A stretch of 64,000 nt of DNA from a bacterium. GTDB taxonomy: Bacteria; Fidelibacterota; Fidelibacteria; Fidelibacterales; Fidelibacteraceae. Location: contig OY781066.1 of the NCBI GenBank assembly GCA_963676395.1, positions 1,408,001-1,472,000 on the forward strand, written 5' to 3'. This document shows, one piece after another, positions 3,210 through 40,900 of the stretch. The notes beneath the pieces are model-generated. The model was not told the origin of the DNA, did not search any database, and worked only from the letters and a program-made list of their open reading frames with translations. The position numbers and the translations under genes are program-made. Position 1 is the first letter of the stretch, and each line of letters opens with the position of its first letter.

Positions 3210-5084
3210 ATGAATAATGCTTTCCGCAATCGGTCTTTGTTTGGTACAGGGCTGATATTGATCATTCTTTTGTTAATTTCTTCTTGCTCAACTCCGCAAA
3301 CTCAAAACATTAAGTTTGCTTTTCTTGCAGATACGCATATCGGTACTTCTACGGGAGCAAGTGATCTTCGGAATTCTGTTAAAGATATTAACGCTATGGA
3401 TAATATTGATTTTGTTGTGTTGGCTGGTGATGCAACTGAATACGATCTTGCGAGTGAACTGGATACGGTCAAGGCGATCATGAGTCAGCTTGATATACCG
3501 TATCATATTATTCCCGGAAATCATGAGCTTAAATGGTCAGCATCCGGAGGTGAAAAATTTAAAAAGTTATTTGGTGATGATAAATTTAATATCGAGTACG
3601 GCGGATATCGATTTATTGGTGTCAATCAGGGACCACTTATGCGTATGGGAGAAGGCTTTATTGCTCGAGAAGATCTGGATTGGGTGCAAACACAGCTAAA
3701 GGAAATGCCAAAAGGCCAACCTGTGTTTTTTATAACACATTATCCTATTAATAATACTGTAACGAACTCTTATGACTTTCTTGAGATTATAAAGCATTAT
3801 AATGTTCAAGGCATATTTCATGGTCATGGTCACAGTAATCAGCACAATGATTATTCGGATGTGACCGGGATCATGGGGCGCTCAAATTTGAGTCGTAGTA
3901 AAGCCGGTGGATATAATATCGTTAGTATCTTTCAAGATACGATGACCTGGGCTGAACGTCGTCCTGTAGAAAAAGAAACACTTGAAACATGGCTGACTAT
4001 ACCTTTAGAGAAATTTACATACACCGATTCACATGATAAACTTATGCCTGATATGTCAGTAAATGATGAATACACGCAGATAGAAAAAGCGTGGGAATAT
4101 GATTCGCATTTTTCTATTACCGCGGCAGTGGCTAAGTCCGGAGATATGATCATATTCGGGAACCGCTCAGGAAAAGTGATAGCACTTGATTCTGAGACAG
4201 GTAAAAAAGTATGGATGTTCGAAAGTCGGGGCCCTGTATTTACAGAACCTGAGGTCGTTGGTGATAAGGTTTATGTGACATCGACAGATTCAAGTATTTA
4301 TTGTTTAAATGTCCAAACCGGAGAAAAGATTTGGAAGCACAAAACAAAAGCTGCCTTGGTTTCACATCCCATGGTTTATGATAATACGGTGTATTTTGGT
4401 GGTTCGGACATGAAATTCCGTGCGCTTAATGCTACAAACGGAAAGCTTGTTTGGGATTTTATGCCGATTAAAAAATATGTGGAATCGAAACCATTATATG
4501 CTGAGGGAAAGGTTATATTTGGGTCATGGGATACTTATCTTTATGCTTTGGATGCCAAAACCGGAGCACTTGCCTGGATGTGGCAGGGACCTAAAAAATG
4601 GACCATGTATTCTCCGGCAGTTGTTGAGCCGGTTTACGCAAACGGTAAGGTATTTGTGGTTGCACCGGATCGCGTTATGTCAGCTATTGATATCGAAACC
4701 GGTCAAACCGTTTGGCGTTCAGATAATTTTAAAGTACGTGAAAATATCAGTTTATCCGAAGACGGCAGTACGGTTTTTGCAAAAACCATGTGGGATATTG
4801 TTTGTGCGGTTAGCACCGAAGGCGATAAAGCGGAGACCGTTTGGAGTAGCGAAATTGGTTATGGCTTTGATATCGATCCCTCTTTCCCTGTTGATGTTGA
4901 TGGAGTCGTCTATGTAACCACCCAATTTGGCTATGTATTTGGACTGGATCGTGAAACGGGAAAGATTCTGTGGAAACATCGCATAGGGGCTAATTTATTG
5001 AATACACCCGTCATTGATGGCGATGCGATGTATATTTCGGGTATGGATGGCAAGGTGACAAAACTTGTGAGATCTAAGATCTAA
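3210..5084 (+). CDS. Metallophosphoesterase fused to a PQQ-like (BamB-type) beta-propeller, probable lipoprotein
   Basis: ADTHIG, AGD, PGNHE, THYP and GHGH motifs, followed by repeated (L)DxxTGxxxW blades; ISSC lipobox-like site. Confidence 0.88.
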   Translation: MNNAFRNRSLFGTGLILIILLLISSCSTPQTQNIKFAFLADTHIGTSTGASDLRNSVKDINAMDNIDFVVLAGDATEYDLASELDTVKAIMSQLDIPYHIIPGNHELKWSASGGEKFKKLFGDDKFNIEYGGYRFIGVNQGPLMRMGEGFIAREDLDWVQTQLKEMPKGQPVFFITHYPINNTVTNSYDFLEIIKHYNVQGIFHGHGHSNQHNDYSDVTGIMGRSNLSRSKAGGYNIVSIFQDTMTWAERRPVEKETLETWLTIPLEKFTYTDSHDKLMPDMSVNDEYTQIEKAWEYDSHFSITAAVAKSGDMIIFGNRSGKVIALDSETGKKVWMFESRGPVFTEPEVVGDKVYVTSTDSSIYCLNVQTGEKIWKHKTKAALVSHPMVYDNTVYFGGSDMKFRALNATNGKLVWDFMPIKKYVESKPLYAEGKVIFGSWDTYLYALDAKTGALAWMWQGPKKWTMYSPAVVEPVYANGKVFVVAPDRVMSAIDIETGQTVWRSDNFKVRENISLSEDGSTVFAKTMWDIVCAVSTEGDKAETVWSSEIGYGFDIDPSFPVDVDGVVYVTTQFGYVFGLDRETGKILWKHRIGANLLNTPVIDGDAMYISGMDGKVTKLVRSKI

Positions 5085-13107: not shown

Positions 13108-14331
13108 ATGTTTAAGCAATTATACAGTAGTGTTGTCATTGGATTCAAGGCGGTTTTTCAAAACAAAGGCCGGGCTTTGTTGACCATGCTTGGAATCATC
13201 ATCGGTATCTTATCGGTTTCACTTATGGGAACGGCTATCAATGGTATTGACAATGTATTTGATGATACACTGGGCATGTTTGGCGATGATGTTCTTTATG
13301 TGCAGCAATTTCCTTGGTTTATGGGCAATGCCGAATGGTGGGAATTCCGGAACAGACCTCGAATTAAAGAGGAGTATGCCGAAAAGATCTCCGAAAGAGC
13401 AAAGTCCATAACCTATGCCAGTCCTGAAACCAACCGGCGCGTAAGTTTATCTTATAGGGATAATACCAGCGAAGGTGTTGATTTAAGCGGGCGTGGTTGG
13501 CAGTCGGCATATATTGATGTTGCAAAGATCCAGAGCGGTCGATATTTCACTCAGCTTGAAGACAAAAGTGCGGCACGCGTAATTTTGATTGGTTCTGAAG
13601 TTCAAAAAGTACTTTTTCCAAATATTCAAGATCCTTGTGGCTTATATATTAAGGTCAATGGTTTAAAGTTTAGGGTGATCGGAGTTTTTGCCGAACAAGG
13701 CAAAGTTATGGGTCTTTTTAGTGTTGATAATATGGCTGTGATCCCGTTTCAAACCATGAAATCCGTTTTCGGTAGAGCTTGGTGGGTTTCGATATCTCTT
13801 AAGTTGACTGAAGGTGTGGATAAAAACTATGCCTTAGAAGAAGTTCGATCAATTACTCGTGGTTTAAGAGGTTTACGACCTCTGGATAAAGATAATTTTG
13901 CCATTAATCAGCAAGAGGCTATGGAAGATGAATTGGGTAAGATCAAATCTAGTATTTCCATTGTAGGTATTGGTATTGCTGCTTTATCTCTGCTTGTTGG
14001 TGGTATCGGCATTATGAATATTATGTTCGTTAGCGTAAAAGAACGGACCAAAGAGATAGGCATCCGAAAAGCTCTAGGCGCCAAGCGTTGGGTGATCATG
14101 ATCCAATTCTTGTTTGAGGCGATTATTATTGCCATGATTGGAGGTGTTATTGGTCTTGGCCTCACCTCGCTTCTTGTAGGGGTGGTTAATAAATTCTTTG
14201 TTGCATCAATGTCCCTTGGATTGGTAATGACAGCTTTAGGTGTTTCCATTAGCGTGGGTATTATTTCGGGTATTGTACCGGCAAGTCAGGCAGCTAAATT
14301 AGATCCCATCGAGGCAATGAGATACGAATAA
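13108..14331 (+). CDS. MacB/FtsX-type ABC permease
   Basis: LTMLGIIIG, large periplasmic domain, GGIGIMNIM.VSV.ERTKEIGIRKALGA, LDPIEAMRYE. Confidence 0.93.
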   Translation: MFKQLYSSVVIGFKAVFQNKGRALLTMLGIIIGILSVSLMGTAINGIDNVFDDTLGMFGDDVLYVQQFPWFMGNAEWWEFRNRPRIKEEYAEKISERAKSITYASPETNRRVSLSYRDNTSEGVDLSGRGWQSAYIDVAKIQSGRYFTQLEDKSAARVILIGSEVQKVLFPNIQDPCGLYIKVNGLKFRVIGVFAEQGKVMGLFSVDNMAVIPFQTMKSVFGRAWWVSISLKLTEGVDKNYALEEVRSITRGLRGLRPLDKDNFAINQQEAMEDELGKIKSSISIVGIGIAALSLLVGGIGIMNIMFVSVKERTKEIGIRKALGAKRWVIMIQFLFEAIIIAMIGGVIGLGLTSLLVGVVNKFFVASMSLGLVMTALGVSISVGIISGIVPASQAAKLDPIEAMRYE

Positions 14332-14340
14332 GGAATTGAA

Positions 14341-15570
14341 ATGAATTTTAAAGAAATATGGCGTTCGGCACGTACTTCAATACGGCAAAATAAACTTCGA
14401 TCATTTCTCACATTACTTGGGGTTGTGATTGGTATATTCTCGATCATTGGTGTTATGACAGCGATCAATGTATTGCAGCAAAGTATTGAGGACAATATAA
14501 ATGGGTTGGGCGCCGGCACATTTCAAATTCAGAAATATCCCAATATGAATATGGGAAATAGTAATTGGAAATATCACAATCGCAAGAATTTGGATTATCG
14601 TGATTTTAAACGATTGAAAGAAAAGTTGACAATCGTGGATTATGCAACAGCGGAAGACTGGAATTGGAATAAAACCATCCGCTATAAAGATAAAGAAACT
14701 AAACCTAATATGGTTGTTGCGGGTATTACGCATAACTGGGAATTTACAAATAACCTTATGGTGGATCATGGAAGAATGATCTCTGAGATTGATGAAAAGA
14801 ACGCATCGCATGTTGTTGTATTGGGTGCAGACGCAATAGATATCCTGTTTGCAAATATTGATCCGATCGGCAAAGACGTAAAGATTGATGGCATTAAGTA
14901 TCGCGTTATCGGTGTTGCCGAAAGGCGTGGCGAACGCTATGGGGATTCAATGGATAATAGAGCATATATGCCGTTGACCACTTATTTTAAATACTATGGT
15001 AAAGCAAGTTTTACATCTTTAAATTATTGTTTTACGGTATTGGATCAAGATCAATTTGATGAAGGTATGCGTGAGGTTATTCACGAGCTTCGATTGATCA
15101 GAGGTGATAAGCCCGGTGATGAAAATAGTTTTGAAACATGGACAAATGCATCTTTATTAGATAGTTTTAATAAAATGACAAGTGCTGTGAAAATTGCGGC
15201 TATGATTATTGCCTCCATTGCTCTTCTTGCATCGGGTATTGGAATAATGAATATTATGCTTGTGACGGTCTCAGAAAGGACACGAGAGATCGGTGTGAGA
15301 AAAAGCATGGGTGCAAAACGCAAAGATGTATTGTTTCAGTTTATGTTCGAAGCATTGATTTTAACCGAGATCGGAGGTGTGATCGGTATCGTGCTGGGAA
15401 TCGCTGCCGGAAATATCGTGGCGTTAATTTCCGATATGTCTTTTGTGTTTCCCTGGGACTGGGCAATTATTGGTATTGTAGTGTGTTCGGCGATCGCATT
15501 GATCTTCGGATCATACCCCGCCTATAAAGCAGCATCTTTAGATCCGATAGAGGCATTGAGGTATGAATAA
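14341..15570 (+). CDS. MacB/FtsX-type ABC permease (paralog 2)
   Basis: RSFLTLLG, GIGIMNIML...ERTREIGVRKS.GA, LDPIEALRYE. Confidence 0.93.
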   Translation: MNFKEIWRSARTSIRQNKLRSFLTLLGVVIGIFSIIGVMTAINVLQQSIEDNINGLGAGTFQIQKYPNMNMGNSNWKYHNRKNLDYRDFKRLKEKLTIVDYATAEDWNWNKTIRYKDKETKPNMVVAGITHNWEFTNNLMVDHGRMISEIDEKNASHVVVLGADAIDILFANIDPIGKDVKIDGIKYRVIGVAERRGERYGDSMDNRAYMPLTTYFKYYGKASFTSLNYCFTVLDQDQFDEGMREVIHELRLIRGDKPGDENSFETWTNASLLDSFNKMTSAVKIAAMIIASIALLASGIGIMNIMLVTVSERTREIGVRKSMGAKRKDVLFQFMFEALILTEIGGVIGIVLGIAAGNIVALISDMSFVFPWDWAIIGIVVCSAIALIFGSYPAYKAASLDPIEALRYE

Positions 15571-15580
15571 GGGATAGTAC

Positions 15581-16810
15581 ATGAATTTTAATGAAATTTG
15601 GCGATCGGCAGTTGATTCGATCAAACAAAATAAACTACGGTCATTTTTGACCCTGCTAGGTGTGGTCATTGGTATCTTCTCCATTATTGGAGTGATGACG
15701 GCGATTAATGTTCTTCAGCAAACCGTAGAGGATAATATGGGTGGTTTGGGTACTGGTACTTTTCAAGTTCAGAAATATCCAAGCATGAATATGGGGAATA
15801 GACGTTGGCAATATTACAATAGAAAAAATTTGAACTACAGAGATTTTAAACGTCTTTCAGAGCGTTTGAAAATTGTTGATTATGCCACAGCCGAAGATGC
15901 AAATTATGGAAAGATCGTTAAGTATAAAGATAAAGAGACCAAACCTAATATTGTTGTTATCGGTGTCACTCATAACTGGGAATTTACAAATAACTTAAAG
16001 ATCGATATGGGAAGAATGATCACACAAATCGATGAAAAGAATGGTTCTCATGTTATCGTGTTGGGCTATGATGTTGTTGATGTGCTTTTTCCTAATCGTA
16101 ATCCCGTGGGAGAAAATGTAAAGATAGATGGTGTGAAATATCGAGTGATAGGTGTTTCCGAAAGAAAGGGTCAACAGTTTGGACAATCTCAGGATAATCG
16201 AACGGTCATTCCATTAACAACTTATTTTAAATATTATGGTAAGGCTAGCTATACCTCTCTAAACTACTGTTTTACAGTCGTTGACCAAGATCAATTCGAG
16301 GAAGGTAGGCAAGAAGTCATTAATGAATTACGTTTAATTCGCGGTGATGAATTTGGTCAGGAGAATAGCTTTGAAATATGGACCAATGCTTCTTTGATTG
16401 ATAATTTCAATATGATGACAGCGGCTATTAAAATAGCGGCGGCTATTATTGCTTCGATAGCTCTCTTGGCATCGGGTATAGGCATTATGAATATTATGCT
16501 GGTCACGGTTAGCGAAAGAACACGTGAAATAGGTGTAAGAAAAAGTCTTGGTGCAAAACGAAGAGATATACTTCTACAGTTTATGATCGAAGCCATGATT
16601 CTTACCGAAATGGGAGGTGTGATCGGTATTGCATTCGGTGTGTTGGCCGGTAATATTGTTGCATTGATGCTGAAGATCTCAGTGGTTTTTCCCTGGGATT
16701 GGACAATTATCGGTATTGTCGTTTGTTCGGCTATTGCTTTGATCTTTGGATCTTATCCTGCTTATAAAGCAGCAAAACTTGACCCAATTGAAGCACTAAG
16801 ATATGAATAA
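15581..16810 (+). CDS. MacB/FtsX-type ABC permease (paralog 3, close duplicate of paralog 2)
   Basis: Same 409 aa length and colinear with 14341..15570. Confidence 0.93.
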   Translation: MNFNEIWRSAVDSIKQNKLRSFLTLLGVVIGIFSIIGVMTAINVLQQTVEDNMGGLGTGTFQVQKYPSMNMGNRRWQYYNRKNLNYRDFKRLSERLKIVDYATAEDANYGKIVKYKDKETKPNIVVIGVTHNWEFTNNLKIDMGRMITQIDEKNGSHVIVLGYDVVDVLFPNRNPVGENVKIDGVKYRVIGVSERKGQQFGQSQDNRTVIPLTTYFKYYGKASYTSLNYCFTVVDQDQFEEGRQEVINELRLIRGDEFGQENSFEIWTNASLIDNFNMMTAAIKIAAAIIASIALLASGIGIMNIMLVTVSERTREIGVRKSLGAKRRDILLQFMIEAMILTEMGGVIGIAFGVLAGNIVALMLKISVVFPWDWTIIGIVVCSAIALIFGSYPAYKAAKLDPIEALRYE

Positions 16811-32405: not shown

Positions 32406-34685
32406 ATGTCAGTATATTTATTAATGGTCATAGTTCTTTTCTTTCTTGCGATTTCCGGATTGATCGTGGGTGTAACTAATGATGCAGTGAATTTCTTAAA
32501 TTCTGCTCGAGGGGCAAAAGCTGCAAAAAATTGGATTATTATGATCATTGCCAGTCTTGGCATATTGATCGGAACCACTTTTTCAAGCGGTATGATGGAG
32601 GTGGCAAGAAAGGGTATTTTTCACCCCGAAGAATTTTGCTTTTCTGAAGTAATGATCATATATCTTGCTGTAATGTTAACGAATGTTATTTTGCTGGATG
32701 TATACAATACTCTGGCATTACCTACATCAACAACCGTATCTGTGGTATTTTCTTTGTTGGGTGCGGCTTTGGCGGTTTCTTTGGTAAAGATCGGTCGTTC
32801 TGCCGATACAGGCTTGTCTCATCTTACTCATTATATTAATTCCGATAAAGCGTTATTGATCATGGCGGGCATCCTGCTCTCGGTGGTAATTGCGTTTACT
32901 GTGGGGACCATTGTACAATTTCTTACTCGCTTGTTGTTTACATTTAAATATGAAAAAGGCTTAGCACGATACGGGGCCATTTGGGGTGGTTTTTGTATAG
33001 CGATCATTACATATTTTATTTTGGTCAAAGGAGCTAAGGGCTCTTCATTTATGACCGCAGACGTTAAGCAGTGGATCACAGATAATACGTTGTTGATTTT
33101 AGGACTTTCGTTTATTGGTTGGACAATTATTATTCAACTGTTTAAGTGGCTGTTTAAAGTAAATATTCCAAGAATGATTATTTTGATCGGTACCTTTTCT
33201 TTGGCATTTGCATTTGCCGGTAATGATTTGGTTAATTTTATTGGTGTGCCTCTCGCCGGTTATAAAGCATTTCAAGCATTTTCTGCAGTTCCCGGGGCTG
33301 ACCCACACACCTTTTCAATGGGATTTATGTCCGGAGCCGTCAAAACAGAAACTTATCTGTTATTGATCGCAGGTGCTATTATGATCACGACGTTATGGGT
33401 TTCAAAAAAATCCCGCCATGTTAGTCAAACAGAGTTAAGTATTGCCAGACAAGGAATAGGTGAAGAACGTTTTGCTTCAACAGGAATCTCCCGGATTGTC
33501 GTACACTCTTTAGTTGTGATTAATGAATCTTTTAGGAAAATAACCCCCAATCGAATTCGAGAATTTGTTGGAAAACGATTTACCAGGCCCGAAGAGGTAT
33601 CCGGAAGCGAAGCTCAATCTTTTGATATGATCCGCGCGTCAATGAATCTTACTGTGGCCAGTTGTTTGATCGCACTCGGGACTTCTTTGGAACTGCCATT
33701 ATCTACAACCTATGTAACATTTATGGTTTCAATGGGTACGTCTTTGGCAGATAAGGCCTGGGGAAGAGAAAGTGCTGTATATCGTATGTCAGGCGTGTTT
33801 ACTGTTGTTGGCGGTTGGTTTTTAACGGCAATTATTGCTTTAATTGTTTCAATGCTTTTTGCATTACTTGTTAACTGGGGTGGTATTGTAGCTGCCATAT
33901 TGTTATTTGCTTTTGCTGTTTTTGTTTTGGTTAGAACTTTTTTGAGCCACAGAAAAAGTGAAAAAGAAAAAGAAGAAAAGATTCAAGAAGATGATGACAA
34001 TGATATCTTTAAAAAATGCAATGCACATACGGTTAAAATATTAAAGATCATTCCCGACATTCTTGAAAAGAGTATAAAATCCTGTTATAAAGAAGATCGC
34101 AAACATATTAAGGAATTACACGAAAAGACAAAAGAATTATTATTAGATACAAAAAACAGAAAGAATTGTTTTACCCTTCAATTGCGTAATATAGAAGATG
34201 AATCTCTGGAATTTGGACACTTTTATCTTCAAATGTTACATTACATCCGTGAGTTTTCACACAGTTTGAATTATATTGTAGATGCCAGTTACGAGCATAT
34301 TTACAACAATCATCGTGGGCTTAATAAAGAACAATATGAAGAGTTAGAGGTCCTGTGTGACAGTTTGGAAGATATTTTCAAAGATATTAGAAAAGCGGTT
34401 GAGCAACAAGATTTTGATAAAAAGACAAAGATCAAGCATCGCCAGGAGAAACTGCTGGACAAGATTAGTGATTTTCAAAGTAATCAGGTTAAGCGCATTA
34501 AACATGGAAAAACCAATACCCGTAATTCTATTTTATATATGACAGTTATCTTTGGCATTAGAGATCTATTGATCCATGTTGTGCGTCTATTGAAAGTTCA
34601 AAGTAAGTTTGTTCCGTCTCATACTTTACAAGATAAATACGATGATAAATCGATTGATGCTCAAATCAATCTTAACTTAGAATAA
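32406..34685 (+). CDS. PiT (PHO4) family inorganic phosphate transporter with a C-terminal PhoU-like helical domain
   Basis: GVTNDAVN, LPTSTT, AGNDLVN, LPLSTTY signature repeats and a soluble helical tail. Confidence 0.88.
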   Translation: MSVYLLMVIVLFFLAISGLIVGVTNDAVNFLNSARGAKAAKNWIIMIIASLGILIGTTFSSGMMEVARKGIFHPEEFCFSEVMIIYLAVMLTNVILLDVYNTLALPTSTTVSVVFSLLGAALAVSLVKIGRSADTGLSHLTHYINSDKALLIMAGILLSVVIAFTVGTIVQFLTRLLFTFKYEKGLARYGAIWGGFCIAIITYFILVKGAKGSSFMTADVKQWITDNTLLILGLSFIGWTIIIQLFKWLFKVNIPRMIILIGTFSLAFAFAGNDLVNFIGVPLAGYKAFQAFSAVPGADPHTFSMGFMSGAVKTETYLLLIAGAIMITTLWVSKKSRHVSQTELSIARQGIGEERFASTGISRIVVHSLVVINESFRKITPNRIREFVGKRFTRPEEVSGSEAQSFDMIRASMNLTVASCLIALGTSLELPLSTTYVTFMVSMGTSLADKAWGRESAVYRMSGVFTVVGGWFLTAIIALIVSMLFALLVNWGGIVAAILLFAFAVFVLVRTFLSHRKSEKEKEEKIQEDDDNDIFKKCNAHTVKILKIIPDILEKSIKSCYKEDRKHIKELHEKTKELLLDTKNRKNCFTLQLRNIEDESLEFGHFYLQMLHYIREFSHSLNYIVDASYEHIYNNHRGLNKEQYEELEVLCDSLEDIFKDIRKAVEQQDFDKKTKIKHRQEKLLDKISDFQSNQVKRIKHGKTNTRNSILYMTVIFGIRDLLIHVVRLLKVQSKFVPSHTLQDKYDDKSIDAQINLNLE

Positions 34686-34793
34686 TATTTCGCTTAAATT
34701 TAATTTAATTAACAGGTTAGCTTAAAGAAATATTTAAATAAAATTATTTGATATTTTTTATTGTTATCAACAATTTCCTTATTATATTCATTT

Positions 34794-34986
34794 AGTTTAA
34801 TCATGGTTTTTACTATAAAAAGTAAAAGAAAATTTACCTAAATCACATTTGAAAGTACCATGGATCGAAGCTTAGAAAACATACAACAGAGTTGGGAGAA
34901 ACAGAGCTCATCAACCACATCGTTATTGATGTTAAACTGTTGTAATTATTATTTGCCGTTACATGTTAACGGCATTTTTATTTGTG
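34794..34986 (+). promoter_or_regulatory. Candidate cis-regulatory leader/attenuator, copy C
   Basis: CATCGTTATTGAT followed by TGCCGTTA-catgt-TAACGGCA-T5 (34954-34979); matches copy A. Confidence 0.55.
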
Positions 34987-35054
34987 AAAGAAATACTGCT
35001 GTGTAGCTGAGACGAGCTTTATTATATTCAATAACATATAGGAGTGTACAAATA

Positions 35055-37280
35055 ATGTCAATCTATCTCGTTATGGTGATCGTGTTGTTCTTTCTTGCCG
35101 CAACTGATCTAATTGTGGGTGTTACGAATGATGCTGTAAATTTCTTGAATTCCGCACGTGGAGCAAGGGCGGCGAAGAATTGGGTGATTATGTTGATTGC
35201 CTCAATCGGTGTATTTATTGGTGCGACCTTCTCTTCCGGAATGATGGAAGTTGCAAGAAAGGGAATTTTTCATCCTCAGGAATTCATGTTTTCGGAGATC
35301 ATGATTATTTATTTAGCGGTAATGTTAACGGATGTTATTCTTTTAGACGCATATAATTCACTGGCTTTACCAACGTCAACCACAGTTTCAATCGTTTTTG
35401 AATTGTTGGGTTCCGCTGTGGCCATTTCCTTACTGAAGATTGGTCGCAATCCAATGGAAACACTTTCTGATTTACCAAAATACATTAACTCGGATAGAGC
35501 TTTATTGATCATATCGGGTATTTTGCTCTCGGTAATTATTGCATTTTCGGTTGGTGCTATTGTTCAATTTTTAACAAGATTGCTATTTACATTTAAATAT
35601 CAAAAGAATCTTGATCGCTTTGGCGCTATTTGGGGTGGATTGTGTATTGCGATCATTACTTTTTTTATTTTGATCAAAGGTGCTAATGGTTCATCATTTA
35701 TGACAGCCGATCTTAAGGCATGGATCAGTGCAAATACATGGTTGATCTTAGGCGCCTCATTTATAGGTTGGACGATCATTATTCAGTTGGCAAAATGGTT
35801 ATTTAAAGTAAATGTACCAAGAATGGTAATTCTTTTCGGTACCTTTGCTTTAGCTTTTGCTTTTGCCGGAAACGATTTGGTGAACTTTATTGGTGTTCCT
35901 TTAGCCGGGTTTAAATCTTTTCAGCTGTTCCAAGCTTCCGGTGCTAGTGATCCTTCGACTTTCTCTATGGTAGCGTTATCGGGAAAAGTCCAGACCGAAA
36001 CATATATGCTGTTGATCGCCGGAGCCATTATGGTTATTACCTTATGGACGTCCAAAAAATCCCGCCACGTTTCTAAAACAGAATTGAATATTGCCAGTAA
36101 AGATGCTACGGATGAACGTTTTGGTTCTACCGGTTTTTCTCGTTCAGTTGTTAGGATGGCTGTAAGTTTTAATCAAGGTATGCGCAAGATTTTTCCCTCA
36201 GCAATGCGCAATAAAGTTAACGAACGTTTTTCTCGTCCGGTTATGAATTCCGAAGCTGAAGCCCAATCTTTTGATATGATACGTGCTTCAATGAATCTAA
36301 CCGTTGCATCGTCTTTGATCGCACTTGGCACCTCATTGGGATTGCCCTTGTCAACTACTTATGTGACTTTCATGGTTTCAATGGGCACCAGTTTGGCCGA
36401 TAGAGCCTGGGGTCGTGAATCTGCGGTTTACCGTATTACCGGTGTGTTTACCGTGATCGGTGGTTGGTTCTTGACGGCGATCATTGCTTTTACTGTTTCT
36501 TTGATCTTTGCTACGCTTCTTGATCTAGGCGGTATTTTCTCGGTGTTGGGTTTGTCGGTATTGGCGATTTTCTTGATCGTGCGCACACTTCTGACTTTTA
36601 GAAAAAAAGAAGTTGCACGCGAAGAAGCACAGAATGAAGAAGAAGGTAATGACATTATGGAGATCTGTAATGCTTACACCAAGAAAATCCTAACGACTAT
36701 TCCTCAGATTTATAGTGATATGATCGAGGCGCTTCATAAAGAAGATCGCAAGACATTGCGTGAGTTAAGAAAGCAAACGGCAGAGCTCTTGGAAAAAACC
36801 AAGAATCGCAAAAATCATTTTACGGTTCGTTTGCGTGATATTGAAGAAGATTCATTGCAGTATGGACATTTTTATTTACAGATGCTTCACTATATACGTG
36901 AATTCGCTCGTTCAATTGATGATATGGTTTCAGCTTGTTCGGTACATATTGAGAATACACACTGCGGTACGAACAATGCTCAGCAAGCTGAATTGATAAA
37001 GCTTTCAGAAGAAATTGAAACAATATATTCAGCGATATCTCGTATGGTAGAGGAACAGAATTTTAATGAAAAAGAGAACATTAAAGCTGAACATGAAGAG
37101 CTTCTGGATATTATTGTTGAATATCAGAAAAATGAAGTTCGACGTGTGAAAAATGAGCAATCACAGACAAGGAACTCGGTTCTTTTTATGTCGGTATTGT
37201 CCGGATCTAAAGATTTAACTGTTGATGTGATCCGTCTTTTGAAAGTTCAAAGTAAATTTACACCGGACCTATCGGACTAG
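35055..37280 (+). CDS. PiT (PHO4) family phosphate transporter with PhoU-like tail, second paralog
   Basis: Colinear paralog of 32406..34685 with the same signature motifs. Confidence 0.88.
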   Translation: MSIYLVMVIVLFFLAATDLIVGVTNDAVNFLNSARGARAAKNWVIMLIASIGVFIGATFSSGMMEVARKGIFHPQEFMFSEIMIIYLAVMLTDVILLDAYNSLALPTSTTVSIVFELLGSAVAISLLKIGRNPMETLSDLPKYINSDRALLIISGILLSVIIAFSVGAIVQFLTRLLFTFKYQKNLDRFGAIWGGLCIAIITFFILIKGANGSSFMTADLKAWISANTWLILGASFIGWTIIIQLAKWLFKVNVPRMVILFGTFALAFAFAGNDLVNFIGVPLAGFKSFQLFQASGASDPSTFSMVALSGKVQTETYMLLIAGAIMVITLWTSKKSRHVSKTELNIASKDATDERFGSTGFSRSVVRMAVSFNQGMRKIFPSAMRNKVNERFSRPVMNSEAEAQSFDMIRASMNLTVASSLIALGTSLGLPLSTTYVTFMVSMGTSLADRAWGRESAVYRITGVFTVIGGWFLTAIIAFTVSLIFATLLDLGGIFSVLGLSVLAIFLIVRTLLTFRKKEVAREEAQNEEEGNDIMEICNAYTKKILTTIPQIYSDMIEALHKEDRKTLRELRKQTAELLEKTKNRKNHFTVRLRDIEEDSLQYGHFYLQMLHYIREFARSIDDMVSACSVHIENTHCGTNNAQQAELIKLSEEIETIYSAISRMVEEQNFNEKENIKAEHEELLDIIVEYQKNEVRRVKNEQSQTRNSVLFMSVLSGSKDLTVDVIRLLKVQSKFTPDLSD

Positions 37281-39623: not shown

Positions 39624-39657
39624 AAACCCTCTTGGTGTTAAGCTGAGAGGGTTTTTT
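39624..39657 (+). terminator. Intrinsic terminator
   Basis: AAACCCTCT...AGAGGGTTT followed by a T run. Confidence 0.85.
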
Positions 39658-39725
39658 GTTTCTTGTCTCTTGCATTTATATAGGGCTTTAATTAATATCT
39701 CACATCAATAAATAACAGAGGTCCT

Positions 39726-40646
39726 ATGCAAAACAACGACTATATTTCTCGTATTAATAAAGTTATGGATTTTATCGAAGCTAATTATGAAGAGGAATTG
39801 ACACTCGAAAAATTGGCATCTGTAGCGTGTTTTTCCAAGTATCATTTTTCAAGAATATTTCATGCCATGACCGGCGAAAGCTTATTTCAATTTATCTCAC
39901 GAGTTAGACTTGAGAAGTCAGCATCTTTATTGCTAGGGGATCCCAATAAGAGTATTACAGATGTCGCATTTCAATGCGGATTTAGTGATCTGTCGGTTTT
40001 TTCAAGAAACTTTAAGTCGTATTTTAATGTTTCTGCCGCCGAATACAGAAAAAATAAATATAGCAATAATCGTCAAACGCTTAGCAACGAGGGTCAAAAA
40101 AATGAGCGCGTTATTCCTTATTATTGTTCTGAAACGCAACAATTAAAATGGAGGAGTAGCATGAAGCTCAACAAAAGTATTGAAGTGAAAACCTTGCCAG
40201 ATATGACCGTAGCCTATGTCCGCTATGTTGGACCCTATGCCGGAGATGGCGCCCTGTTTGAACGATTATTCGGACAGCTGTTTGGATGGGCCGGTCCAAA
40301 AGGTTTGGCAGGTGGACCGGATGTCAAAACCTTGATTATCTATCACGATAACCCGGAGATCACAGATGATGCTAAATTGAGAACATCAGTGTGTTTAACG
40401 GTTCCCGAAGGCACTAAAGTTGATGGCGAAATTGGAAAAATGAAGCTTGATGGTGGTTTGTATGCCATTGGTCGCTTTAAGGTAAAAACCGATGAGTTCG
40501 GAGAAGCCTGGGATTTAATGTGTGGTAAATGGCTGCCTGAGAGCGGCTATCTGCCGGATGATCGCCCCAGCTTTGAAATGTATCCCGAAGAAATGAAGGA
40601 TGGAGTACATACGGTGGATATTTGTGTGCCGGTCAAAGCTAAATAA
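39726..40646 (+). CDS. AraC family regulator with a C-terminal GyrI-like effector-binding domain
   Basis: N-terminal SKYHFSRIF...CGFSD...FSRNFK double HTH; C-terminal YHDNPEIT, WLPESGY, FEMY. Confidence 0.93.
   Translation: MQNNDYISRINKVMDFIEANYEEELTLEKLASVACFSKYHFSRIFHAMTGESLFQFISRVRLEKSASLLLGDPNKSITDVAFQCGFSDLSVFSRNFKSYFNVSAAEYRKNKYSNNRQTLSNEGQKNERVIPYYCSETQQLKWRSSMKLNKSIEVKTLPDMTVAYVRYVGPYAGDGALFERLFGQLFGWAGPKGLAGGPDVKTLIIYHDNPEITDDAKLRTSVCLTVPEGTKVDGEIGKMKLDGGLYAIGRFKVKTDEFGEAWDLMCGKWLPESGYLPDDRPSFEMYPEEMKDGVHTVDICVPVKAK
40061..40163 (+). promoter_or_regulatory. Candidate intragenic AraC-type operator, promoter and RBS
   Basis: TAGCAA-N5-GTCAAA twice at 21-bp period (40061, 40082), TATTAT at 40119, GGAGGAG at 40150, in-frame ATG at 40161. 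Confidence 0.55.
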
Positions 40647-40680: not shown

Positions 40681-40713
40681 AAAGAGCCCTTGCTGTAAAT
40701 GCGGGGCTCTTTT
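40681..40713 (+). terminator. Intrinsic terminator
   Basis: AAAGAGCCCT...GGGGCTCTTT(T). Confidence 0.8.
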
Positions 40714-40900
40714 GGGTTGATCGAATAACGAACATTCGAGTGCTTGTTCTTTAGCAAATCATAAATCATTTTCATTCATTTGCTCACGTAAATTGATTGC
40801 TTTTTTGTTTCTGGGGATTTGTCTCTTGTCTCTTGTTTTCAAAGGCTATATTTATTACATTTTGGTGCTATTATCGAAACTAATTATGAAGGATTTTAAG

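Follow-up and report, generated by a model that had tools for sequence, protein, structure and literature searches.

Why does a regulator gene of a Fidelibacteraceae bacterium carry, in the codons of the linker between its DNA-binding and ligand-binding domains, a pair of DNA repeats followed by what look like a −10 element, a Shine-Dalgarno (SD) sequence and a second, in-frame start codon? The gene occupies positions 39726–40646 of the 64,000-nucleotide (nt) stretch of contig OY781066.1 (assembly GCA_963676395.1) analysed here, which we call the window; all positions are those of the window, and the elements of the gene described below are on its forward strand. Comparison with homologous genes reveals that the linker is conserved as nucleotides, and that the spacing of its elements is that of promoters activated by Rob-type proteins. 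We conclude, with a probability of roughly 60%, that the linker DNA is an activator-dependent intragenic promoter, coupled to an SD sequence and ATG from which the ligand-binding domain would be made alone, following the logic of the TipAL/TipAS proteins.

The 306-residue product was characterised from the list of open reading frames (ORFs), from Pfam profiles and from sequence and fold matches in the PDB. Pfam identifies an AraC-type helix-turn-helix (HTH) domain with two HTH motifs at residues 30–109, a GyrI-like (GyrI-like/Cass2) small-molecule-binding domain at residues 152–304, and nothing else. The scores for PF12833 (HTH_18; 74.8 bits, cut-off 33.6) and PF00165 (67.5 bits, cut-off 26.6) place the protein with the MarA/Rob-like members of the AraC/XylS family, and that for PF06445 (109.3 bits, cut-off 26) identifies the GyrI-like domain, for which a Foldseek match to SbmC (1JYH; TM score 0.85 normalised to the target, rmsd 2.3) indicates the duplicated SHS2 fold. 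STM3175 (7R3W) is the best PDB match in both sequence and fold, with Rob, MarA and SbmC next (phmmer: 7R3W 1.7e-20, MarA 7e-15, Rob 2.3e-10); the DNA-binding domain is nearest to those of STM3175, MarA, RamA and Rob. In an alignment of the protein with 33 of 120 listed hits (34 sequences), the recognition helices are near-invariant (F36, S37, H40, F41 and R43; F92, S93 and R94). Glu284 is invariant in the same alignment and pairs with the Phe of the STM3175 'ffqy' stretch, as befits a GyrI-like domain, in which Glu is usual at the equivalent place (PMC10414762). No AraC_binding domain was found by Pfam in the 306 residues and the DNA-binding domain is N-terminal; the protein is thus not of the AraC-proper type.

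Between the two domains, the stretch SNNRQTLSNEGQK (residues 113–125) is encoded by two 17-mers, TAGCAAtaatcGTCAAA at 40061–40077 and TAGCAAcgaggGTCAAA at 40082–40098, which are 21 base pairs (bp) apart. They are best described as two 21-nt units. The distal unit, box 1 (40062–40082), encodes S113–L119, with GCAA at 40063–40066 and GTCAA at 40072–40076, and the proximal unit, box 2 (40083–40103), encodes S120–N126, with GCAA at 40084–40087 and GTCAA at 40093–40097. Relative to the predicted transcription start, the two would span about −69 to −49 and −48 to −28, respectively, so that box 2 would overlap the −35 position. After them come a pyrimidine-rich, anti-SD-like stretch at 40110–40119, which can pair with 40151–40160 in the full-length mRNA, and a −10-like TATTAT at 40119–40124, encoding Y132-Y133-C134. 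When this hexamer is extended to 8 nt (40119–40126) it matches the Bacteroidota −7 box TAnnTTTG with one mismatch. From the −10 position alone, transcription is predicted to start at about 40131 (40129–40133), which would give a leader of about 30 nt. The SD-like GGAGGAG at 40150–40156 overlaps the codons of W142-R143-S144 (TGG AGG AGT) and lies 4 nt before the ATG of Met146, from which an internal ORF (40161–40646) encodes 161 residues, the GyrI-like domain alone.

A sequence-only reading of this DNA had described the arrangement as a gene within a gene. Every element it listed, from the repeats beginning at 40061 and 40082 and TATTAT at 40119 to GGAGGAG at 40150 and the ATG of codon 146 at 40161, is where it was placed; the repeats do fall in the AraC-GyrI linker, and the internal ORF does comprise the 161 residues of the GyrI-like domain. 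Towards its 3′ end the proximal box has a run of seven A residues (40095–40101); homologs do not conserve this run, and it is thus probably not a slippage signal.

How far could these elements be accidental? Taken alone, the 17-mer repeat is mildly unusual: its pattern, with at most one mismatch, occurs three times on the two strands of the window, compared with 0.61 expected, and 3 of 100 shuffled sequences also reach three. The composite pattern GCAA-N7-CAA-N7-GCAA-N7-CAA-N21-TAnnnT, in contrast, occurs once in the window (40063–40124) and in none of 100 shuffles, and without any mismatch it is found exactly once, at the same position in the gene, in 59 of 80 homologous loci. A position weight matrix (PWM) for the boxes, trained on the 160 units of the 80 homologous loci with the window excluded, gives box 1 the highest score on either strand of the window (20.2 bits) and box 2 the second highest (17.6 bits). 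SD-like words are present at −20 to −4 of 24 of the 41 long ORFs of the window, compared with 7% of random 17-nt windows, implying that this organism uses SD sequences and that GGAGGAG is thus a meaningful signal.

A protein search gave 1648 clusters of relatives at E ≤ 0.001, the best named ones from Bacteroidales. In genomes, 423 loci were confirmed by tblastn and the element was examined in 80 of these, mostly from Bacteroidales but including Firmicutes, Ignavibacteria, Calditrichaeota, Lentisphaeria, Thermotogota and others. Their ORFs, picked by tblastn and ORF extension, were recovered in all 80 cases, that of L077 ending at a contig edge without its first HTH but being retained. Aligned by codon with the window gene, they make up the 81 genes to which the counts below refer, and span relatives of 49–61% amino acid identity; the closest relatives, P0001–P0008 (71–91% identity), are known from protein alone.

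The linker residues S113, N114, Q117, Q124, Y132, C134, K141, W142 and M146 are invariant in the protein alignment, and the codon alignment shows that what is preserved in the units is the DNA. Position 113 is encoded by AGC in 69 genes, CGC in 8, CAC in 2 and GGC in 2, with neither TCN nor AGT in any; position 120 by AGC in 61, CGC in 11, GGC in 6 and other codons in three, but never by TCN. Position 117 is CAA in 75, AAA in 5 and GAA in one, position 124 is CAA in 63, and CAG is absent from both. In the gene as a whole, AGC accounts for 24% of Ser codons and CAA for 55% of Gln codons. The AGC, AAT and CAA codons of box 1 are thus kept as nucleotides, and where amino acids are replaced within the units the bases nGC and nAA remain unchanged. 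The consensus of the 21-nt unit is aGCAAt-N4-gtCAA-N6, the bases of GCAA being present in 155–160 and those of CAA in 136–159 of the 160 units.

The constraint is sharply localised. In pairwise comparisons, an identical degenerate residue is encoded by the same codon with a frequency of 0.70 in codons 111–157, compared with 0.41 elsewhere in the gene, and over 200 samplings, each of 40 disjoint pairs, the lowest value within codons 111–157 (0.672) is well above the highest elsewhere (0.430). A sliding profile of synonymous constraint has a single peak, at codons 111–165; conserved residues outside it, such as G169 and P170, are free in their codon choice. The sequence-only reading had proposed that homologs be compared for nucleotide-level conservation of the repeat, SD sequence and ATG, since conservation of the amino acids only would speak against it; nucleotide-level conservation is what the 81 genes display. 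These results also bear on the simplest explanation of the locus, that chance, codon bias or an SNxxQ peptide repeat is responsible and the DNA repeat is a by-product. Such an explanation accords with a repeat that is in frame, with a period of seven codons, and with a 17-mer that is only mildly unexpected in the window, but it is already contradicted by the codon identity, as it is by the fact that 61–75 genes use a single Ser codon out of six and a single Gln codon out of two, and by non-synonymous replacements that keep the bases; the peptide, moreover, is predicted to be disordered. We regard it as scarcely credible.

This disorder is seen in an AlphaFold2 model, calculated from the 34-sequence alignment, in which residues 113–126 have pLDDT values below 50 and a small hairpin at residues 130–143 has values of about 60. 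The invariance of a peptide that is probably disordered would be better explained by constraint on its DNA. Synonymous constraint alone cannot separate DNA from RNA, and one could also imagine that the conserved nucleotides belong to a structured or small RNA, or are bound as RNA by a protein, with the potential pairing between the anti-SD-like stretch and the SD sequence in favour of this. However, RNAalifold gives 0 conserved pairs over 150 nt in 44 of the 81 sequences (chosen for having 150 nt free of gaps, near-duplicates having been removed by eye), Rfam has no family match in the window, and the content and spacing of the motifs are those of a Rob box and a −10 element. An RNA-level element is therefore very improbable.

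If the constraint is on DNA, what does it specify? The units are present as two copies in most genes and as three, in phase, in those with longer linkers (for example L042, L056, L066, L070, L075, L079 and L080), so that linker length varies by whole units. After the units comes a spacer of seven codons that is variable in sequence but fixed in length, such that box 2 is always 36 nt from the TA of the −10-like element, and this TA is 42 nt from the ATG. TAnnnT is present in all 81 genes: residue 133 may be F, Y, I, V, L, N or T, but the third position of its codon is always T, and where it is Phe it is encoded by TTT in 100% of cases, compared with 65% expected. The longer form TAnnTTTG, present in 62 of the 81 genes, is the −7 box of Bacteroidota sigma-A, occupying −12 to −5 (PMC9723704). 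In Firmicute-like and other distant homologs the corresponding residues are YIE, YVD, YLE and YNE, and the DNA reads TATATT, TATGTT, TATCTT and TATAAT.

The closest comparison is with micF, on which the Rob activation complex has been solved by cryo-EM. The Rob box there spans 20 bp; its A site is GCAC, and its B site, CAAA, overlaps the −35 position. Rob contacts G−47 and A−45 in the A site and G−38, T−37 and positions −35 and −34 in the B site (PMC9178005). With TAnnnT set at −12 to −7, box 2 reads G−47 C−46 A−45 A−44 and then G−38 T−37 C−36 A−35 A−34, so that the positions contacted by Rob correspond to G, A, G, T, A and A; the A element here ends in A, where GCAC ends in C. In Escherichia coli K-12, 35 nt separate the G of the micF box from the first T of the −10 element downstream, and G 40084 and T 40119 are equally far apart. 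When micF is aligned without gaps to the window and to four homologs, AGCA, CAA and TA...T fall in the same columns. The element thus has the features of a class II MarA/SoxS/Rob promoter, with A and B elements, the B element over the −35 position, and the appropriate distance to the −10 element. As in micF, the box is asymmetric, 20 bp long, with GCAm and GTCAAA elements one turn apart, and Rob, the micF activator, shares the AraC-plus-GyrI architecture of the window protein. The difference is that micF has one box, in intergenic DNA, whereas here two or three tandem boxes with a 21-bp period lie in the linker codons of the presumed activator itself.

The sequence-only reading had favoured a different model, the half-sites of AraC. 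In the araI1-araI2 pair, direct repeats have a 21-bp period and the proximal one reaches the −35 region, and this much of the comparison holds. AraC, however, binds as a dimer through its N-terminal sugar-binding domain, and we have set the araI model aside because the window protein has no AraC-type dimerisation or sugar-binding domain. Each unit here contains two elements, like the full MarA/Rob box occupied by one monomer, and the asymmetric Rob/MarA box, with its GCAC and CAAA sites, appears to be the better model. The broader proposal, of an intragenic promoter of the activator-dependent type, gains support from the nucleotide constraint and from this micF-like class II geometry; in both content and geometry the internal element resembles such a promoter, which makes promoter activity probable.

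Does the conservation extend to translation signals? At position 143, Arg is encoded by AGG in 58 of 64 genes, by AGA in 5 and by CGA in one, although AGG would be expected for 24% of Arg codons. Position 146 is ATG in 78 genes, GTG in one, TTG in one and TCA in one, giving a start codon in 80 of 81. In L065 and L067, Trp142 is lost but AGGAG is kept. Beginnings of coding regions often show synonymous constraint, and it is seen here too, over codons 147–157. An SD-like 4-mer is present in 66 of the 81 genes, and 13 of the 15 without one have the Bacteroidota-type box. Given that Bacteroidia are reported not to use SD sequences (PMC6847099), these data suggest a refinement for Bacteroidales, in which the box appears to be TAnnTTTG and the SD sequence partly dispensable. 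Thirteen homologs have TGG AAA, AAG or AAT in place of TGG AGG, and hence no SD sequence (L007, L017, L019, L021, L023, L024, L029, L044, L047, L051, L059, L061 and L062); all have TAnnTTTG, which fits with SD dispensability in Bacteroidota. Only in L078, from Calditrichaeota (about 3340–3501 of its locus), are both SD sequence and ATG lost; it has the sole CGA at Arg143 and the sole non-start codon, TCA, at 146. Its start may have shifted, since AAGGA is followed by ATG a few codons downstream.

These observations tell against an operator without a second product, by which this or another regulator would repress or pause transcription of the gene and the W-R-x-x-M pattern would reflect protein structure. 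W142, R143 and M146 do lie in or beside the predicted β-hairpin, and an SD sequence should matter little in Bacteroidia if the report cited above applies. Protein structure does not, however, account for the use of AGG in 91% of Arg143 codons, for an AGGAG that outlives the loss of Trp, for the replacement of ATG by GTG or TTG only (except in L078, where the SD sequence is lost as well), or for constraint over codons 147–157 like that of a start region; and stand-alone homologs, described below, begin at the same boundary. We consider an operator of this kind quite unlikely.

A stronger alternative, although still an unlikely one, is that Met146 is a TipA-like internal translation start used from the full-length mRNA only, the repeats and TAnnnT serving as an autoregulatory operator, a roadblock or an A-rich ribosome standby site. 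Conservation of the SD sequence and ATG does not by itself require a promoter, TipAL and TipAS are translated from different start codons within a single gene (PMC7762955), no −35 hexamer is present, and the region is free of RNA structure, as a standby site would require. What it leaves unexplained is the presence of TAnnnT in every gene despite amino acid changes, in lineage-specific forms (TAnnTTTG as against TATAAT-like), the equality of the box-to-−10 register with that of micF, and a 21-nt periodicity with copy changes by whole units, which point to a DNA-binding protein.

The accessibility of the SD sequence also bears on this alternative. The motifs TCC, CTCC and CCTCC are enriched just upstream of the −10 element in homologs, CCTCC being found in 11 of 81 genes compared with a mean of 0.5 in 34 control windows. 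When 40056–40205 is folded, both the minimum free energy and the centroid structures pair 40110–40119 with 40151–40160, whereas the SD sequence is free when 40131–40205 is folded; the pyrimidine stretch lies upstream of the predicted transcription start and would thus be absent from the short transcript. Over the 81 genes, the predicted unpaired probability of positions −14 to +3 is 0.62 in the short transcript and 0.43 in the long one, compared with 0.52 when the upstream sequence is shuffled, and the real context leaves the SD region less accessible than the shuffled one in 62 of 81 genes. The natural upstream sequence therefore lowers accessibility in the long mRNA, contrary to expectation for a start that is used from it. 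There is thus weak evidence, from predicted folding, that the internal SD sequence may be partly masked in the full-length mRNA by the upstream pyrimidine stretch.

Several findings weigh against an activator-dependent intragenic promoter that yields a short product. A simple scan for the sigma-70 consensus found no promoter on the forward strand between 39400 and 40900, a result that would suit an internal translation start; it is empty because there is no −35 hexamer, and class II geometry accounts for both. The 81 genes share descent, and their counts cannot be read as numbers of independent events. GGAGG is retained in most Bacteroidales homologs, where a role as SD sequence does not account for it, and Y132, C134 and W142 may be constrained at the protein level, as part of a predicted β-hairpin (130–134/139–143, pLDDT about 60). 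The folding results have limits of their own: the accessibility comparison used mononucleotide shuffles and related sequences, and the SD-masking hairpin, with a fold z-score of −0.15, is no more stable than shuffled sequence. The identity of the DNA-binding protein must be weighed here too. The full-length regulator would be the simplest candidate, given its near-invariant recognition helices, the Rob-like form of the boxes and the absence of conserved neighbours. Outside the gene, however, the box PWM matches 12 times in 482 kb (both strands of the 3-kb flanks and the rest of the window), compared with 2–8 times in five shuffles, which is at chance level, and none of these matches is upstream of the gene; there is thus no independent sign that the protein recognises the boxes. 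Covariation between the second HTH and GTCAA, although it gives a table of 50/16/10/5, comes down to 2 independent pairs on supported branches, too few to weigh either way.

Would a protein that begins at Met146 be a sensible product? SbmC residue 3 aligns to residue 152 of the window protein. Stand-alone GyrI-like proteins of 159–167 residues, encoded on contigs of 5–74 kb, start 6–11 residues (most 7–10) before an E/K-V-K/N strand motif, and Met146 is 8 residues before the same motif. Many matches of about 161 residues are on very short contigs and are possibly truncated gene calls; these were not counted. The ligand-binding domain of STM3175 is reported to raise albicidin tolerance by itself, and single-domain homologs exist, such as E. 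coli YgiV (PMC10414762). The conservation of the SD sequence and ATG leads us to predict that the 161-residue protein is made as a separate product. We also considered E. coli ygiV as a case in which the DNA-binding domain had been lost, and rejected it: the ygiW-ygiV gap in K-12 is 52 nt, with no relic.

On the promoter reading, the locus might work as follows. A full-length regulator of the Rob/STM3175 type would bind a small molecule through its GyrI-like domain and, as the most likely activator, would in its ligand-bound state act on the 21-nt boxes in the DNA of its own linker. Transcription from about 40131 would then produce a short mRNA whose leader, about 30 nt long, contains the strong SD sequence GGAGGAG, and translation from the ATG of Met146 would give the 161-residue GyrI-like domain. 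This short protein could soak up, or act on, the small molecule, thus damping the signal. While the nucleotide conservation and the geometry are observed, the activity of the promoter, the identity of the protein bound to it, the short product and the sequestration of ligand are what we infer from them.

How does this compare with known systems? TipAL/TipAS of Streptomyces lividans is described as a minimal autoregulated multidrug-resistance system with two start codons (PMC7762955). In it, as in AlbA/AlbAS of Klebsiella oxytoca, one gene gives a full-length ligand-sensing activator and an in-frame domain that sequesters the inducer. Those proteins are of the MerR family with a TipAS-type domain, made from alternative start codons and controlled by an autoregulated promoter upstream of the gene. 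In contrast, the window protein, with only AraC-type HTH and GyrI-like/Cass2 domains in Pfam, is not a member of the TipA class; it is AraC/Rob-type plus GyrI-like, its operator and promoter would be intragenic, and its short form would have its own predicted transcript. STM3175 and YgiV are closer in architecture, the former being AraC-type plus GyrI-like, with a domain that alone binds and neutralises a toxic ligand, and with coexisting single-domain and two-domain homologs; the available part of that report describes no internal promoter or short isoform, and attributes resistance to gene amplification (PMC10414762). The window linker does not align with the STM3175 family. VirF30/VirF21 of Shigella offers an AraC-like regulator whose gene contains an internal promoter and gives a second, in-frame product with a feedback role, but VirF21 is translated from a leaderless mRNA, and this short form, which lacks an N-terminal segment, represses virF (PMC5101355), whereas here we predict a leader of some 30 nt that includes an SD sequence, and a ligand-binding domain without the DNA-binding domain. 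In the literature covered by our search nothing combined 'GyrI-like' with 'internal promoter', and among the matches listed, the top-ranked literature on isoforms and start codons does not mention 'GyrI-like'; we found no published description of such an intragenic promoter and short form in an AraC/Rob-GyrI gene.

Taken further, these ideas can be joined into a single, more speculative picture, which as a whole we think rather doubtful. The linker peptide would be a by-product, its invariant residues being dictated by a promoter/operator through which the regulator acts on its own gene. The DNA-binding domain would have no conserved target outside that gene, and the gene as a whole would be a self-contained, horizontally mobile, inducible 'sponge' module. 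The bound activator would fire the short transcript and block read-through of the long one, and with the SD sequence masked in the long mRNA the two products would be under separate controls.

Should the promoter reading prove true, it would represent a widespread case in which the codons of a protein hold the regulatory DNA that this protein itself reads. The 'sense and sequester' logic of TipA and AlbA would extend to the large AraC/Rob-GyrI class, including drug-tolerance proteins such as STM3175; the invariance of a disordered linker would be explained; annotators would be warned that such genes encode two proteins; and synthetic biology would gain a compact, one-gene inducible part. Synonymous changes can destroy the boxes, −10 element and SD sequence without altering the long protein, which makes the proposal cleanly testable.

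Finally, the surroundings of the gene are in keeping with a self-contained unit. A terminator-like hairpin at 39624–39654 ends the upstream H+-pyrophosphatase gene, and another, with a T run, lies 3′ of the regulator gene on the same strand (40688–40706), so that the gene looks monocistronic and an internal transcript would encode the short protein alone. No conserved neighbourhood was found in the 80 homologous loci. The biggest neighbour family, and the sole one to recur, is present in 8 of them and is a DUF4332 protein encoded 3′ of the regulator on the same strand (for example, the 239-residue ORF at 3929–4645 of L008). This lack of conserved neighbours fits a self-contained module. The window itself is chromosomal, with genes for BamA, Dxr, the Rnf complex, Fe-only hydrogenases and proteins with T9SS sorting tails. 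Its BamA is 76–80% identical to proteins of Candidatus Marinimicrobia, whereas the named relatives of the regulator are mostly from Bacteroidales, with others from Firmicutes, Ignavibacteria and elsewhere. From this difference between housekeeping and regulator relatives, and from the unconserved context, the regulator module looks horizontally mobile.

The intergenic DNA downstream of the gene (40801–40891) repeats, in collapsed form, the sequence leading into the gene together with its first codons (39652–39792), with copied blocks in the same order (a 12-mer, 100% identical; an 18-mer, 94%; a 14-mer, 86%; and a 21-mer, 95%) and about 54 nt missing. The ATG of the next gene, which encodes a membrane protein with no Pfam hit, is at 40886, within a copied block. 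The copy could be a relic of tandem duplication or a shared control region. Elsewhere in the window (13108–16810 and 32406–37280) there are three tandem paralogs of a MacB-type permease, beside an ABC ATPase, a membrane-fusion protein and an outer-membrane factor, and two tandem PHO4-family transporters of about 750 residues directly upstream of the H+-pyrophosphatase gene.

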